40,286 nucleotides of DNA from a virus. Taxonomy: Duplodnaviria > Heunggongvirae > Uroviricota > Caudoviricetes. Below the pieces are notes generated by a model that was not told where the DNA came from, did no database searches, and saw only the letters and a list, made by a program, of their open reading frames with translations. Both the position numbers and the translations under genes were made by a program. Location of the stretch: the IMG/VR virus record IMGVR_UViG_2541047822_000001, positions 1 to 40,286 of that record; one strand, written 5' to 3'. Positions 4,044 to 14,772 of this stretch are shown here, one piece after another. Position 1 is the first letter of the stretch; every line of letters begins with the position of its first letter.

Positions 4044-4140
4044 TTTGTTCTCCACGTATATGCGCTGCACCGCGCTGAATTCGGGTAAAAGGAAGCCCTC
4101 ACCGTCCGGCGATTATTGAGTCAATTACATTTCCATAAAT

Positions 4141-4372
4141 GCCCCCGTAGGGGCGGTTAGTTTCTCCACAAAACAGAGAAGAACACCTGCGGTGGCAGCC
4201 GCCCGGATGGATTGGGTTATGAGCCCGTCGTCCGGTGATGCTCTTCTCTGTTTTGTAAAAAGGACGGTACCAGCCGGAAGCAAAGGTACAAGCTGGTACC
4301 GCCAAGACTACACACAGCATAAAGTTGTGGTGCCGGGTGCCTCCCGGTGCCTGGCGAAGGTTGCACACCAGG
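4141..4372. other. GC-rich structured non-coding block (candidate RNA element)
   Basis: No protein-like ORF across 4071..4556. Perfect 15-bp inverted repeat ACAAAACAGAGAAGA (4168..4182) / TCTTCTCTGTTTTGT (4242..4256); hairpins GCCCC-CGTA-GGGGC (4141..4154), GGTACCAGC...GCTGGTACC (4266..4300), CCTGG...CCAGG (4350..4372). Strand and function unknown. Confidence 0.3.
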
Positions 4373-4556
4373 CGGGTGGGTATCCACAGAAGGTCGACTG
4401 TCAGCCTCAACCTTAACCCGCGTGCGCTGAGCCGCATTCACCACAACGCTAAGGATTCTCTCTGGTTGAAAATACTTAGCTGTTATGTGCCTGTCTTTTC
4501 ACCACTTCAGGCTCGGTGGTATCCTTTTAAGCCCGTATACATAAAAGGAAAATCAA

Positions 4557-5003: not shown

Positions 5004-5207
5004 TTAACCTCCAGATTTCCGCGCATCTAAAGGCGCATTCTCATTTGGTGTGAACTGAATAGTTGTGCTGATATTGATTAATGCCCCGACACACAAGACT
5101 ACGCACTCAGAGCAGATAGCAACTTCATCTTTTCCGCCTTTGGCGATGATTTTTTTTGCCTGCAGCTCGTTTGCGCCACAAAACGAGCATGTGAAATAAC
5201 GGTTCAT
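5004..5207 (-). CDS. small protein with ClpX-type C4 zinc finger (~67 aa)
   Basis: MNRYFTCSFCGANELQAKKIIAKGGKDEVAICSECVVLCVGALI matches the N-terminal zinc-binding domain of ClpX (CSFCGK...KLIAG...ICDECVDLC). Second in-frame ATG at 5207 has an AAGAGAG Shine-Dalgarno. Confidence 0.6.
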   Translation of the reverse strand: MNRYFTCSFCGANELQAKKIIAKGGKDEVAICSECVVLCVGALINISTTIQFTPNENAPLDARKSGG

Positions 5208-5303
5208 TTGCGCTCTCTTACACATAGTATTTAACGAATCATCCGGTCATTCATACGCCACCGGCGGCTACTTCGTGGGCGTCCTGCCTGTTCGTTGTTT
5301 TAA

Positions 5304-5357
5304 CACCTTTAAGTTGTAATTTAGTTGTGGTTTTGAATGTTGTCAACAACTTTATGT
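5304..5357. promoter_or_regulatory. OL-like operator cluster
   Basis: CACCTTTAAGTTGTAAT (5304..5320) and ACAACTTTATGT (5346..5357) recur in the cI/cro intergenic region (CACCTAAAAGTTGTGAT at 7024..7040; ACAACTTTATGT at 6999..7010). Half-sites AAGTTGT/ACAACTT are reverse complements. Confidence 0.5.
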
Positions 5358-5409
5358 GGTTTGAACGAGTAGCCAAGGAGTGCAAGGATTATCAAAAAAA
5401 GGAGGTTGT

Positions 5410-6300
5410 ATGGAAGACGCGCTTTACGCTTTTAATTACACACAGAACCGGGACAAGTTATTTGCTAACTTGATTAGCATCATTGATGGAATTATTGCAG
5501 ATGGAGTTGTCCGTGAAGAGGAGGTTCTTTACTTAGATACATGGTTACTTGAAGCAAAGCAGATTATCAATAATGGAGTTATAAAAAGTCTATCAGCACG
5601 GGTGTCGGATATTCTTGCAGATGGAATAATCACATCAGAAGAACGTGATGACCTTAAAAATAGCCTTCTCCAAATACAGAGGGAAATTCTTGATATCCCT
5701 GAAATTGATTTTTACTCCAAGGATGTAGATGTCCATTTACTTAATGGACTATGTAAAGGATTAATTGCTGATCGGAACTTAACTCAAGAAGAAATAAGAT
5801 ATCTTAATTGGTGGCTTGAGCAAAATGGAGCTTTGAAGAACAACTACCCAGGAAAAAAACTTTATGCACTTGTAAAGGAAATTCTTAAAGATGGTGTTAT
5901 TACTGAAGATGAGAGTTTAACTCTACATAAGGCATTAGTAGACTTCACAGGATGTGACTTGGAAAGTGGAGTGGTGGATGGTTTGGCGACCAGGCTGCCT
6001 ATTGATGTAGGGGCTTCGATAGAGTTAGAGGGTAAAACCTATTGTCTTACAGGCACTTTTGTTGCAGGAAAGAGAGCCGTAGTTGAAAATTTGATTAAAA
6101 ATGCTGGTGGGAACATCAGTAGTGGAATTACTCAAAAGTTGGATTTTTTAGTAATTGGGACGCTTTCCTCCCGTGATTGGAAATTCTCAAGTCACGGAAG
6201 GAAGATCGAAAAGGCTATATCTTATAGGGATGATAATGGTGCAAAACTTAAAATTATTTCTGAAGAAATGCTTTTCGATGCATTACCAAGTTCGCGATGA
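5410..6300 (+). CDS. accessory protein: four TerB-like repeats plus C-terminal BRCT domain (296 aa)
   Basis: ATG at 5410 with AAAGGAGG Shine-Dalgarno (track begins at an upstream GTG). Repeats IADGVVREEEVLYLDTWL / LADGIITSEERDDLKNSL / IADRNLTQEEIRYLNWWL / LKDGVITEDESLTLHKAL; C-terminus LEGKTYCLTGTFVAGKRAVVENLIKNAGGNISSGITQKLDFLVIG...AKLKIISEEMLFDAL fits the BRCT pattern of NAD-ligase C-termini. Visibly AT-rich. Confidence 0.8.
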   Translation: MEDALYAFNYTQNRDKLFANLISIIDGIIADGVVREEEVLYLDTWLLEAKQIINNGVIKSLSARVSDILADGIITSEERDDLKNSLLQIQREILDIPEIDFYSKDVDVHLLNGLCKGLIADRNLTQEEIRYLNWWLEQNGALKNNYPGKKLYALVKEILKDGVITEDESLTLHKALVDFTGCDLESGVVDGLATRLPIDVGASIELEGKTYCLTGTFVAGKRAVVENLIKNAGGNISSGITQKLDFLVIGTLSSRDWKFSSHGRKIEKAISYRDDNGAKLKIISEEMLFDALPSSR

Positions 6301-6969
6301 CCAGAATACCCTACCTATAACATGAATTCTGGCTCGTCTATCTTCAAAGGTGAGTATTTCATCTGGGTACTCATCTTTGTTGAAGCTTCTAAGAATCAAG
6401 CCACCGTCAGGTAAGTTGATAAGTATTTTAACCCTTAGCAATACACCATCTCGTACGGCATAAAGATCGCCATCACGAATAGGAACGGTTTGAGAAATAT
6501 CAACGGCAACAAGATCTCCATTATTGAGAACCGGTAATAAACTGTTCCCCCATATTTTTACGATCTTGGCATTAGATGCACATACGCCAGATTTTCTCAA
6601 ATCTGCTCTTCTTAATGGAAACCAGTCAATAGCTGATTCAACTATTTCAGCCAGACATCCGTTACCTGCCGATAACTCGACATCTAAAACAGGAATGTTT
6701 ACGAAAATATCGGGGTCTAATGCGGTGCTTTCTGCTTCTTTTACAACAAGATCAGGTATGGATGCGTTGTCTTCAATACCAAGTTGTAACCACTTTTGTG
6801 ATACACCTAAAACTTTTGCAATTTCTTTAATTTTGCGCGGTTGTAGAGTTTCGCCATTCTCTATTTTGGCTACAGATTGTTGTGAAAGTCCAATTTTTTC
6901 AGCTAGTTGAGCTTGGCTCATGCCAGCTTTCTCTCTACCTATCTTTAATCGTTCTGCCAGTGTTTTCAC
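6283..6969 (-). CDS. cI: CI-like repressor (HTH_XRE + S24 LexA-like peptidase)
   Basis: N-terminal HTH (LAERLKIGREKAGMSQAQLAEKIGLSQQSVAKIENGE) and C-terminal S24 autocleavage domain (...GNSLLPVLNNGDLVAVD...). GTG start at 6969 preceded by GAGGG; diverges from cro across an operator-rich gap. Confidence 0.9.
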   Translation of the reverse strand: MKTLAERLKIGREKAGMSQAQLAEKIGLSQQSVAKIENGETLQPRKIKEIAKVLGVSQKWLQLGIEDNASIPDLVVKEAESTALDPDIFVNIPVLDVELSAGNGCLAEIVESAIDWFPLRRADLRKSGVCASNAKIVKIWGNSLLPVLNNGDLVAVDISQTVPIRDGDLYAVRDGVLLRVKILINLPDGGLILRSFNKDEYPDEILTFEDRRARIHVIGRVFWSSRTW

Positions 6970-6994
6970 AACATATCCCTCTCTTTTTTGATGA

Positions 6995-7082
6995 GGTTAC
7001 AACTTTATGTTTTAGCTTTCCAACACCTAAAAGTTGTGATAAAAGTTGTTAATGTTGTATTCTTGCAACTCGTAACAACTTA
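6995..7082. promoter_or_regulatory. OR-like operator/promoter region between cI and cro
   Basis: 135-bp divergent intergenic region with several AAGTTGT/ACAACTT half-sites (6999..7010, 7024..7040, 7041..7060, 7071..7082), sharing 12–17-mers with the 5304..5357 cluster. Confidence 0.6.
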
Positions 7083-7104
7083 ACTACCTAAAAAGGAGAA
7101 AGCT

Positions 7105-7353
7105 ATGACACCTGAGCAATTAGCCTTATCGGAGGCAATCGCTCTGGCTGGTGGTCAATCAGAATTGGCTCGGAAGCTCACAGCCAGCAGCGGTCATTTA
7201 GTAAAGCAACAACATGTCTGGAACTGGTTGAACAGAGAAAAGCGTCCCCCTGCAAAGCTCTCGATATTCATTGAAAAGACCACTGGCATATCAAAAGAAA
7301 AATTACGTCCAGATATTTTTCAAAAGATTAAAGATTCATCAGATGAAAAGTAA
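7105..7353 (+). CDS. cro: Cro-like HTH regulator
   Basis: 82 aa, AAAAGGAG Shine-Dalgarno, divergent from cI; HTH-like segment GGQSELARKLTASSGHLVKQQHVWNW. Confidence 0.75.
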   Translation: MTPEQLALSEAIALAGGQSELARKLTASSGHLVKQQHVWNWLNREKRPPAKLSIFIEKTTGISKEKLRPDIFQKIKDSSDEK

Positions 7354-7375
7354 CCACAGTTTTAAGGAGATAGCC

Positions 7376-7927
7376 GTGGGTAAGCATCACTGGAAAGTAG
7401 AAAAACAGCCTAAGTGGTACGTGAAAGCTGTCAGAAAAACTATCGCGGCGTTGCCGGGTGGTTACGCTGAAGCTGCTGACTGGCTGGATGTAACAGAGAA
7501 CGCATTATTTAACCGCCTTCGTGCCGATGGCGATCAGATTTTCCCGCTGGGATGGGCAATGGTTTTACAGCGCGCAGCTGGCACTCACTACATTGCGGAT
7601 GCTGTCGCACAGTCTGCTGGTGGGGTGTTCGTATCGCTTCCTGAAATTGAGGAAGTAGAGAACGCCGATATAAACCAGCGCCTGCTGGAAGTCATCGAAC
7701 AGATCGGGAGTTACTCAAAGCAGATTCGTTCGGCAATCGAAGATGGGGTAGTGGAGCCACACGAGCAGACAGCAATTAACGACGAGCTGTATCTCTCAAT
7801 TTCGAAGCTGCAGGAGCATGCAGCACTGGTCTACAAAATCTTTTGCATTTCAGAAAGTAATGACGCCCGCGAGTGTGCAGCTCCGGGCGCCGTGGCGTGT
7901 CGTGACTGTGGAGAAACTAACGCATGA
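7376..7927 (+). CDS. CII-like / early regulatory protein
   Basis: Position after cro. I favour the GTG at 7376 (AAGGAG 6 nt upstream) over the track start 7271 or the ATG at 7343 that overlaps the cro stop. Family name is from memory of similar prophage proteins (MGKHHWK...). Confidence 0.5.
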
Positions 7928-12905: not shown

Positions 12906-13658
12906 ATGAACCTTGAAGCCTTACCAAAATATTACTCCCCAAAATCTCCAAAATTGAGTGATGACGCACCGGCGACAGGCTCGGGTGGTTTAACAATTAC
13001 AGATGTGATGGCTGCGCAGGGGATGGTGCAGTCGAAAGCACCGCTTGGGTTTGCCTTATTCCTGGCAAAAGTTGGTGTTCAGGATCCTCAGTTTGCGATT
13101 GAAGGTCTGCTCAATTACGCGATGGCACTGGATAACCCGACATTGAATAAATTGAGTGAAGAAACCCGGCTACAGATCATTCCTTACCTTGTGAATTTTG
13201 CCTTTGCTGATTATTCCAGATCTGCGGCAAGTAAGGCTCGCTGTGAGCATTGTGCAGGTACGGGATTTCATAATGTATTGCGCGAAGTGGTGAAACACTC
13301 CAGAAACGGGGAATCTGTTATCAAGGAAGAGTGGGTGAAGGAACTATGTCAGCATTGTCATGGTAAGGGAGAAGTCAGCACAGCGTGCAGAGGGTGTAAG
13401 GGTAAAGGTATTGTCCTGGATGAAAAAAGAACCCGGCTTCATGGCATGCCTGTTTATAAGATTTGTGGGCGTTGCAATGGAAACCGGTTTAGCCGTTTAC
13501 CAACCACACTGGCGCGGCATCATGTCCAGAAGCTGGTACCAGACCTGACGGATTATCAGTGGTACAAAGGATATGCAGATGTCATTGATAAACTGGTGAC
13601 AAAGTGCTGGCAGGAAGAAGCATATGCTGAGGCGCAATTAAGAAAAGTGACGAGATAA
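12906..13658 (+). CDS. late-gene antiterminator Q-like protein
   Basis: Cys-rich zinc-finger region (CEHCAGTG...CQHCHGKG...CRGCKGKG...CGRCNGN) and position just upstream of the late/lysis genes, followed by a promoter-plus-terminator arrangement. Confidence 0.65.
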   Translation: MNLEALPKYYSPKSPKLSDDAPATGSGGLTITDVMAAQGMVQSKAPLGFALFLAKVGVQDPQFAIEGLLNYAMALDNPTLNKLSEETRLQIIPYLVNFAFADYSRSAASKARCEHCAGTGFHNVLREVVKHSRNGESVIKEEWVKELCQHCHGKGEVSTACRGCKGKGIVLDEKRTRLHGMPVYKICGRCNGNRFSRLPTTLARHHVQKLVPDLTDYQWYKGYADVIDKLVTKCWQEEAYAEAQLRKVTR

Positions 13659-14130: not shown

Positions 14131-14772
14131 ATGTCAAAAACCTTTGAGCAAATGAAACTTAATTTTATTTATTTGCACGAATTATGGTTGTTAACTCATT
14201 CGATAAAAACACGCTGTGAAGAGCTCTTTCATGAGACACCACTTCCTGATGCTGGTTACTACTTTAAAATTGATTACAATATTCATATATTAATAAATAG
14301 CATTCTTTCAGATGCGGCTAACGTCAAGAAACTAATCGCAGTTCCTAAAAATAAGACTAGGGAAGAATCCCCTGAACAATTCAGATTGCATATTGAGCGA
14401 AGTAATTACCTTCAACAAAAAATAAAAGATATTGAAATTAAGGAAATTAATTCCGTGAGGGTGAGAAACACCTTGCAACACTTCGATGAGTATTTAGATC
14501 AGCTAAACATTGATGTTACAGCAGGGAAGATGAAAGGTCATGGTATTGCAGTTTATAATTTTGTGATCTCCCACTGGAAGGCAATCAACCCTAGGCCATA
14601 TCCGATAAGGTTATATGTTTGTGAGGAAAAAACATACTATAATATGAAGGCGTCAATTAACTTAGAAAAAGTTTACAATGAGGCTTTTCAGGTTAATGAG
14701 GTAATCCGTAAAGAAATAAATAAAGAAGCTGGTGCAGAGCCTGGTAGCTTTATGGTTCCTTTAAACTTTTAA
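14131..14772 (+). CDS. AT-rich moron protein, unknown function (213 aa; possible HEPN-like R-x4-H motif)
   Basis: AAGGAG Shine-Dalgarno; strongly AT-rich; sits between Q and the holin where lambdoid phages carry cargo; own terminator immediately downstream. Contains RNTLQH, an R-x4-H pattern. Confidence 0.75.
   Translation: MSKTFEQMKLNFIYLHELWLLTHSIKTRCEELFHETPLPDAGYYFKIDYNIHILINSILSDAANVKKLIAVPKNKTREESPEQFRLHIERSNYLQQKIKDIEIKEINSVRVRNTLQHFDEYLDQLNIDVTAGKMKGHGIAVYNFVISHWKAINPRPYPIRLYVCEEKTYYNMKASINLEKVYNEAFQVNEVIRKEINKEAGAEPGSFMVPLNF

Follow-up and report, generated by a model that had tools for sequence, protein, structure and literature searches.

The gene at 5410..6300 on the plus strand of the viral record IMGVR_UViG_2541047822_000001 encodes a 296-residue protein in which two tandem helical modules are followed by a BRCT domain, and we tentatively propose superinfection exclusion or defence sensing as its leading role. 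The window that we analysed is the whole stretch of 40,286 nucleotides, a segment of an Escherichia coli chromosome in which a lambdoid prophage is integrated at tRNA-Thr(CGU), adjoining proA. Within this prophage the gene, which we call the BRCT gene, is convergent with the gene for a cI-like repressor and overlaps its 3' end by 18 bp. A preliminary description of the sequence had given these coordinates and this overlap, and the list of open reading frames (ORFs) agrees with it; the ORF starts at either GTG 5380 or ATG 5410 and ends at 6300. The same description regarded the protein as TerB-like repeats fused to a BRCT domain and as a candidate exclusion or DNA damage-linked sensor. The family is catalogued but uncharacterised, and is related to BRCT-based DNA-binding modules and to candidates similar to PDC-S48. 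The gene and the parts of its product are:

5410..6300, plus strand: BRCT gene coding sequence, 296 aa, tandem helical modules and BRCT (ORF list, phrog_3989, WP_000389078.1)
5410..5709, plus strand: helical module 1, aa 1-100, hairpins R1 and R2 with the motifs IADGVVREEE and LADGIITSEE
5710..6009, plus strand: helical module 2, aa 101-200, hairpins R3 and R4
6022..6282, plus strand: BRCT domain of the LigA/RFC1 class, aa ~205-291, with conserved T214-G215, R222 and K243

The C-terminal domain matched PF00533 over residues 206-290 with 29 bits, above the Pfam threshold of 21.3 (E 1.3e-6), and besides BRCT no Pfam domain was found in the protein, RNase_T included. PF00533 was also matched by 95 of the 99 sequences in our homolog alignment (A1), which was assembled from two homolog searches, and by 101 of 122 diverse representatives of the family. 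An AlphaFold2 model built from the 99-sequence alignment was confident (pLDDT 86.5, pTM 0.74), and showed an alpha/beta domain with the BRCT fold over residues 205-291; the model from the single sequence, at pLDDT 45.7, was unusable. Foldseek matched the C-terminal domain to LigA and RFC1, the BFVD viral fold library returned ligase and BRCT proteins alone, and the best PDB sequence match of the domain on its own was the BRCT domain of human RFC1 (E 0.0015). The fold that had been proposed from conserved positions is therefore borne out by the Pfam score, the Foldseek matches and the relatives alike.

Within the domain, T214-G215, R222 and K243 align with the T-G, R and K of RFC1, and we take the aligned positions of RFC1 and LigA to be those that contact the DNA 5' phosphate. 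Residue 214 is Thr or Ser in 99 of 99 sequences, with G215 kept in 98 of 99 and R222 in 99 of 99; a Lys at 242 or 243 is conserved in just part of the family. The phosphate-pocket positions are thus conserved, and the domain is predicted to bind phosphate-bearing DNA, a point that we count towards a DNA-binding sensor. A family-specific motif, SRDW-x-FSSHGRKIE, is essentially invariant. The NCBIfam LigA models matched residues ~203-255 to their C-terminal ~50 positions alone, at 20-28 bits against cut-offs of 369-1051. As these models reach the BRCT tail only and stay far below their cut-offs, identity as an NAD+-dependent DNA ligase was ruled out. Public records list many relatives as 'NAD-dependent DNA ligase' or 'DNA polymerase'; the proteins hold just the BRCT part of those enzymes, and the names are therefore annotation errors.

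The N-terminal 200 residues are acidic, with a net charge of -16 compared with +3 for the C-terminal domain. In the AlphaFold2 model, module 1 contains helices at residues 2-29, 36-52, 56-69 and 76-94, and module 2 at 104-118, 126-144, 148-159 and 166-180. Aligning residues 1-100 with 101-200 in hhalign, using slices of the 99-sequence alignment, gave a probability of 99.4% (E 1e-21), and judged by this comparison the two modules are a tandem duplication. Each module holds two hairpins of the form helix-[A/L]DG-x5-E-helix, and pairwise hhalign related R1 to R3 and R2 to R4 at 98%, R2 to R3 at 91% and R3 to R4 at 90%, with only 23% for R1 and R2. An Asp, with a Glu seven residues on, is near-invariant in all four hairpins (D31/E38, D71/E78, D121/E128 and D161/E168). 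The four repeats of the preliminary description were recovered in this way, through the duplication and the Asp/Glu pairs. A family-profile search of PDB sequences matched BRCT domains alone and returned nothing credible for the N-terminal half. The hairpin repeat at residues 58-92 showed a weak match to NCBIfam YmfL (E 1.6e-4), and residues 34-90 matched phrog_6499, 'transcriptional regulator' (E 6e-5). We dropped the YmfL relationship because BLASTP found no similarity to the prophage's own YmfL (window 7376-7927). The protein is cytoplasmic and non-catalytic, without a recognised enzyme or effector domain.

The hairpin motif had been likened to TerB (PF05099). In the window protein TerB gave no Pfam match at E<=1. 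Among the relatives it was the commonest non-BRCT Pfam family, matched by 19 of 99 at E<=1, and in the diverse representatives it was matched by 7 of 122 at E<=0.01, the best single member reaching E 9.5e-5. It was also the top match of the family consensus, over ~35 residues, at 19.6 bits against a cut-off of 24.4 (E 0.0012). DUF533, presumably a TerB-related family, was matched by three of the 99 and one of the 122, and the DG-x5-E motif is in register with both TerB motifs. Against a canonical set of 16 retrieved TerB proteins, aligned for hhalign, the probability was 0.4-4% (E 0.01-0.34, with reversed controls at 0.085-0.7). We rejected TerB membership, since every score lies under the Pfam cut-off and the profile-profile comparison was not significant. 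The resemblance is at the level of the motif and possibly reflects remote homology. The earlier comparison with TerB stands as far as the motif goes, and to speak of a 'TerB-BRCT defence protein' overstates the evidence.

The protein is identical to RefSeq WP_000389078.1 ('BRCT domain-containing protein'); of 5,426 complete E. coli genomes, 47 carry its coding sequence, always in the same type of prophage. It matched phrog_3989 (function unknown) at full length, over residues 2-295 of 296 (E 1.5e-128), and Orf2 of Vibrio phage K139 is a homolog with 33% identity over 95% of the length (tblastn, E 1e-38). Among 50,697 phage records megablast gave no match to the locus, and the relatives were reached by tblastn alone. 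A HMMER search of 1.84 billion cluster representatives retrieved 1,596 clusters at 50% identity with E<=1e-10, and 137 with E<=1e-30. The family has members in Gamma-, Delta- and Alphaproteobacteria, Hymenobacter and Scalindua. Two architectures prevail, one of ~295 residues with two modules and the BRCT domain, and one of ~210 residues with a single module and BRCT, which aligns to residues ~105-290 and so corresponds to module 2 with the BRCT domain.

The unit of one module and BRCT also occurs in larger proteins. It follows a DEDDh exonuclease in P0306 and P0336 (456 and 471 aa), precedes helix-hairpin-helix HhH2 and a second BRCT domain in P0279 and P0324 (499 and 473 aa), and forms the C-terminus of a helicase-nuclease, the 2,042-residue protein P0351, which combines SF1 helicase, REase_MTES_1575 and DUF3320 and matches the PADLOC models PDC-S37, MkoA and Hhe. 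The window protein itself had a single PADLOC match at E<=1, to the candidate PDC-S48 (E 2.4e-7). The match is partial, covering window residues 119-251 and profile positions 239-377 of 411, and K139 Orf2 matched the same model at E 3e-8. Our scan of the relatives showed PDC-S48 to consist of a DEDDh exonuclease, a module and BRCT, found in full in P0306 and P0342. The window protein has the helical module and the C-terminal BRCT domain of this architecture and no DEDDh domain; it thus amounts to an effector-less variant to which a further helical module is added. The earlier remark that this is not a named defence protein agrees with the PADLOC scan, in which PDC-S48 was the only model returned.

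Lysogeny modules that contain a relative occur in lambdoid phages, in P2-like phages and in Detrevirus phages of Pseudomonas. Among the enterobacterial IMG/VR loci, at 57-100% identity, the gene is convergent with an S24 cI in 80 of the 80 listed; Citrobacter genomes show the same convergence, and it holds in 83 enterobacterial loci overall. The 3' ends of the gene and cI overlap by 9-18 bp in nearly all of these loci. Four have gaps of 29-326 nt to cI, and in three of the four the BRCT ORF is truncated. Pseudomonas phage phi1 carries a 216-residue form 29 nt after the repressor, and Sulfurimonas phage SNW-1 a 207-residue form in the immunity region, followed by an SNase gene. Of 47 more distant IMG/VR loci, 31 have a co-directional repressor-like ORF upstream of the gene (15 of them within 300 nt) and 7 a convergent one, and 27 have a co-directional integrase downstream, which in some cases directly abuts the gene. 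It had been asked whether homologs recur beside repressors, and they do so in the 80 enterobacterial loci, in K139-like P2 phages and in phi1.

The GenBank record of K139 assigns Orf2 to a lysogenic operon, PL->cI-orf2-glo-int, for which the transcription start used in lysogeny is mapped. A similar order was observed in P2-like prophages of Aeromonas (cI, BRCT gene, a 232-residue protein, int), Aliivibrio (cI, BRCT gene, a K+ channel, int) and Oceanimonas (cI, BRCT gene, GmrSD/HEPN/methylase genes, int). The cI-int interval of K139-like phages is a defence hotspot (Rousset et al., PMC9122126). We also observed that a voltage-gated-type K+ channel of ~240 residues (Ion_trans, with a TVGYGD selectivity filter) adjoins the BRCT-family gene in three lineages: the Aliivibrio prophage (L014:6894-7658), Litorivivens (L101:4283-5008, equal to L197, channel first with an 8-bp overlap) and a Porticoccus metagenome-assembled genome (MAG; L193, channel second, ~25 nt downstream of the BRCT gene). 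The two genes may form a pair of sensor and membrane effector.

Around the BRCT gene, the window contains the following features:

5004..5225, minus strand: ClpX-type C4 zinc-finger protein, 73 aa (zf-C4_ClpX, E 1.4e-10; phrog_5259)
5297..5366, no strand: OL-like operator block with a leftward PL-like promoter (promoter scan; repeats common to the cI-cro region)
5399..5405, plus strand: strong Shine-Dalgarno sequence AAGGAGG, 4 nt ahead of ATG 5410 and kept in relatives
6283..6969, minus strand: cI-like repressor, 228 aa, HTH_3 and Peptidase_S24 (Pfam and PHROG)
6995..7085, no strand: OR-like operator region between cI and the cro-like gene, with shared ACAACTTTATG and AACACCTAAAAGTTGT elements
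7105..7353, plus strand: cro-like YdaS-family HTH gene, first in the rightward operon (ORF, annotation of an identical prophage)

The product of 6283..6969 carries HTH_3 and Peptidase_S24 and is therefore a repressor of the cI/LexA type. The zinc-finger gene at 5004..5225 is the first of the leftward early operon and is divergent from the BRCT gene; its product is a ClpX-type C4 zinc finger alone (phrog_5259, function unknown) and might disturb the binding of substrates or adaptors to ClpX. The 184-bp intergenic space between the two genes holds repeated operator-like elements and a PL-like promoter, which the promoter scan placed on the minus strand from 5346 to 5318 (TTGACA at 5346-5341, a 17-nt spacer and TAAATT at 5323-5318). 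Exact copies of ACAACTTTATG occur at 5346 and 6999, with 5 matches at <=1 mismatch where 0.71 would be expected, and AACACCTnnAAGTTGT occurs at 5302 and 7022. As these elements are repeated in mirrored order in the cI-cro region, the gene does lie between OL-like operators and cI, where the preliminary description had placed it. At 4318-4328 on the minus strand ACAACTTTATG occurs for a third time without mismatch, inside 4070-4556, a stretch of GC 0.54 without a convincing ORF.

The OL/PL block is near-invariant. When window positions 5297-5375 were aligned with nine relatives (L004, L041, L056, L067, L073, L082, L083, L093 and L094), most positions were identical in 10 of 10 loci, following the pattern AACA-CTTTAAG-TGTAATTTAGTTGTG ... 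TGTCAACAACTTTATGTGGTTTGAT, although the BRCT and cI proteins encoded on either side are down to ~58-67% identity at these ten loci. A further short conserved stretch, TGCAAGGAT, lies ~25 nt ahead of the ATG of the BRCT gene and, speculatively, could be a weak extended -10 element for it. No LexA box (CTGT-N8-ACAG) was found between -300 and +150 of the start in 268 family loci, nor anywhere in the window, and direct SOS control of the BRCT gene was rejected for this reason. A scan of the region against Rfam gave no match.

The gene had been described as AT-rich against a GC-richer backbone. Its GC content is indeed 0.377, compared with 0.517 for the window outside 5226-7353, and just 1.3% of equal-sized windows are as low; the values for cI (0.399) and for 5226-7353 as a whole (0.389) are comparably low, however, so that it is the entire immunity region that is AT-rich and not the BRCT gene alone. 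Elsewhere in the window, the lowest-GC part (0.366) contains an AT-rich ORF of 213 residues at 14131-14772 on the plus strand, between a Q-like antiterminator (12906-13658) and the holin genes, which is the late-operon slot for accessory ('moron') genes. In PADLOC this ORF gave just weak matches to CasR (E 0.004) and Cas12f (E 0.07), and the sister prophage L001 has a different, 85-residue gene there. In the left prophage arm (the yfdQ/yfdP region), sister prophages contain ~1.3 kb that the window lacks.

How might such a protein act? In the role that we tentatively favour, exclusion or defence sensing, it would be made in the lysogen and act by binding. The BRCT domain would dock on phosphate-bearing DNA, for instance a 5'-phosphorylated nick, a recessed end or a cohesive end, and the acidic helical modules may gate this binding, oligomerise or recruit a partner. 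The protein could then block or flag incoming or replicating foreign DNA, as an exclusion or defence sensor without an effector of its own and an effector-less counterpart of the exonuclease- and helicase-fused relatives. This role is supported by the placement in lysogeny modules, by the unit shared with PDC-S48, by the defence-hotspot interval of the K139-like phages and by the neighbours of the gene on genomic islands. Small islands with an integrase or resolvase carry a family member in V. parahaemolyticus, Alteromonas and Salinivibrio, where the neighbouring genes encode a KAP NTPase and DUF2806 (Alteromonas) or a LlaJI-type restriction-modification (RM) system (Salinivibrio). If the module and BRCT unit does recognise phosphate-bearing DNA ends or nicks, it would constitute a reusable DNA-sensing module for bacterial immunity.

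A number of observations weigh against exclusion or defence. The protein has no effector domain, and we found no study of the module and BRCT family in the literature that we searched. No sigma-70 promoter for the gene was detected on the plus strand in a consensus scan of the upstream region; being convergent with cI, the gene needs a promoter of its own, unlike the co-directional orf2 of K139. The BRCT protein and cI diverge in parallel, from 100/100% to 57/62% identity and to ~35/30% in Aeromonas and Aliivibrio. Such co-divergence is unlike that of typical swapped defence cargo, and in K139-like phages the gene is constant beside cI and the genes that follow it vary. The gene is thus no 'moron' that phages exchange freely.

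The cellular copies point the same way. The gene follows ppiC in V. harveyi and Enterovibrio (72% and 88% identity; L104/L105 and L187), and at least ten marine gammaproteobacterial MAGs keep conserved neighbours around a family member, namely an SPFH/NfeD-like pair, a hydrolase and a TonB-receptor-like gene (L200-L215, L222), a pattern that suggests vertically inherited, cellular genes in the Vibrionaceae and these MAGs. In a survey of one genome from each species, neither an integrase nor a repressor or resolvase turned up within +-7 kb at 53 of 80 loci; detection relied on a seed-based search of limited reach, and the remaining 27 of 80 are therefore a lower bound on mobile loci. The preliminary description held that homologs scattered without prophage or defence-island association would speak against its proposal, and the chromosomal members do so in part, with phage and island contexts found as well; such orthologs temper the defence reading. 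In E. coli there is no chromosomal copy, all 47 occurrences being in this prophage type. A related cI type is present in 71 E. coli genomes, and in 23 of these, with an 84%-identical cI variant, megablast found no match to the BRCT gene. The one genome of the 23 that we inspected, E. coli 20Ec-P-124 (L097:3165-3500), has an internal deletion of ~714 bp in the BRCT gene: it aligns with window 5233-5442 and 6157-7400 but not with the part in between, and so retains the promoter together with ~11 codons at the start of the gene and ~145 bp at its end. In a variant of 75% identity the gene is intact. The BRCT gene is therefore dispensable for keeping the prophage in the chromosome.

Much of this evidence would also suit a modulator of the lysogeny switch or of induction, an explanation that is possible, if on balance somewhat unlikely. 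Such a protein would be a long-standing partner of LexA-like (S24) repressors. It would bind either the repressor or damaged DNA, one example being the 5' junction of a gap, at which RecA begins to load, and would in this way tune RecA-dependent cI cleavage and hence spontaneous or SOS induction. BRCT domains belong to the DNA damage response, and the adjacency to S24 cI in the 83 enterobacterial loci, the parallel divergence, the invariant OL block upstream and the position directly after the repressor in K139, Aeromonas, Aliivibrio, Oceanimonas and phi1, with varying genes next, all argue for this explanation, which might add a new input into prophage induction. However, in many phages other genes intervene before the repressor and the gene abuts int (L132-L138), the island and chromosomal copies have no repressor at all, the 268 loci lack a LexA box near the start, and in E. 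coli the copy with the deletion is kept next to an intact cI; the parallel divergence, too, may reflect linkage within one mosaic module. We consider unlikely a wider reading in which partnership with LexA-like phage repressors is the ancient and dedicated function of the protein. The protein would then be a non-enzymatic sensor of 5'-phosphate DNA lesions or ends, kept in temperate phages of the lambdoid, P2-like and D3-like kinds, and would link the state of the DNA to the lysogeny decision by tuning induction and/or exclude superinfecting DNA, with the acidic TerB-like hairpins as a metal- or partner-gated switch; as a lysogeny-module factor it would be of a new class.

The chromosomal copies would be accounted for by a general cellular adaptor for DNA maintenance, of bacterial origin and acquired by phages, which would bring a repair or tolerance benefit or aid phage DNA transactions and have no anti-phage role. 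The syntenic orthologs in Vibrionaceae and at least ten marine MAGs, the broad taxonomic spread, the fusions to DNA enzymes (DEDDh exonuclease, HhH) and a BRCT domain closest to LigA and RFC1 are consistent with it, and yet we consider it doubtful given the strongly non-random placement in lysogeny modules and in islands bearing defence genes, the related fusions that match defence-candidate models, the missing LexA box and the missing chromosomal copy in E. coli. Phages often carry truncated homologs of host immune proteins, and with a PDC-S48 match limited to the module and BRCT part, the DEDDh domain being absent, the protein could be an anti-defence decoy: an effector-less sensor copy that occupies the DNA signal and shields phage DNA from exonucleases of the PDC-S48 type or helicase-nucleases. 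We regard this as improbable, since K139 and other phages place the gene in a lysogenic operon with cI and int and not among the early lytic genes, the chromosomal and island copies would be left unexplained, and PDC-S48 is only a candidate. Even less probable, to the point that we give it very little weight, is a TerB-type sensor of metal or tellurite stress. PF05099 is the best non-BRCT Pfam family, DG-x5-E is in register with the TerB motifs and the conserved Asp/Glu pairs could bind metal, but the TerB scores are below the cut-off, hhalign gave <=4%, PADLOC returned no match to SngA or BnzA and there are no ter genes near the locus.

Compared with known systems, the protein resembles LigA in the sequence and fold of its BRCT domain and lacks the adenylation, OB, Zn and HhH domains of the ligase; the insertion motif SRDW-x-FSSHGRKIE sets its BRCT domain apart from those of both LigA and RFC1. 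It shares paired helix-DG-x5-E-helix hairpins with TerB, to which neither profile nor structure comparison gave a significant match. Defence systems are known that contain TerB domains (bioRxiv 10.1101/2025.09.30.679545). Unlike the loci of Shango SngA, Bunzi BnzA and Dionysus DinB, the window locus has no helicase, ATPase or pore-forming partner genes; its neighbours are phage regulatory genes, and the window protein did not match the SngA and BnzA models of PADLOC (E<=1). PDC-S48, itself an unvalidated defence candidate, shares the unit of helical module and BRCT, but its exonuclease (profile positions 1-~165) is missing in the window protein, which has a second helical module instead.

K139 Orf2, like kp3 of phage kappa, is a full-length homolog with two modules and BRCT, in the same length class and beside the repressor of a temperate phage. 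It has no assigned function. K139 is P2-like and the window prophage lambdoid. Orf2 is also co-directional with cI, with which it is co-transcribed from the lysogenic promoter annotated in K139; the window gene and its cI are convergent. Genes for exclusion that are expressed in the lysogen and lie beside cI include rexAB of lambda, sieB of P22 and bstA of Salmonella phage BTP1. Like them, the window gene adjoins the repressor within the immunity region of a temperate phage. It differs in having no sequence or domain similarity to them and in being convergent, and not co-transcribed, with cI. It differs also in being conserved together with cI instead of being lineage-specific, and with ~1,600 clusters and several lineages of temperate phages the BRCT family is far more widespread and conserved than most repressor-side genes.

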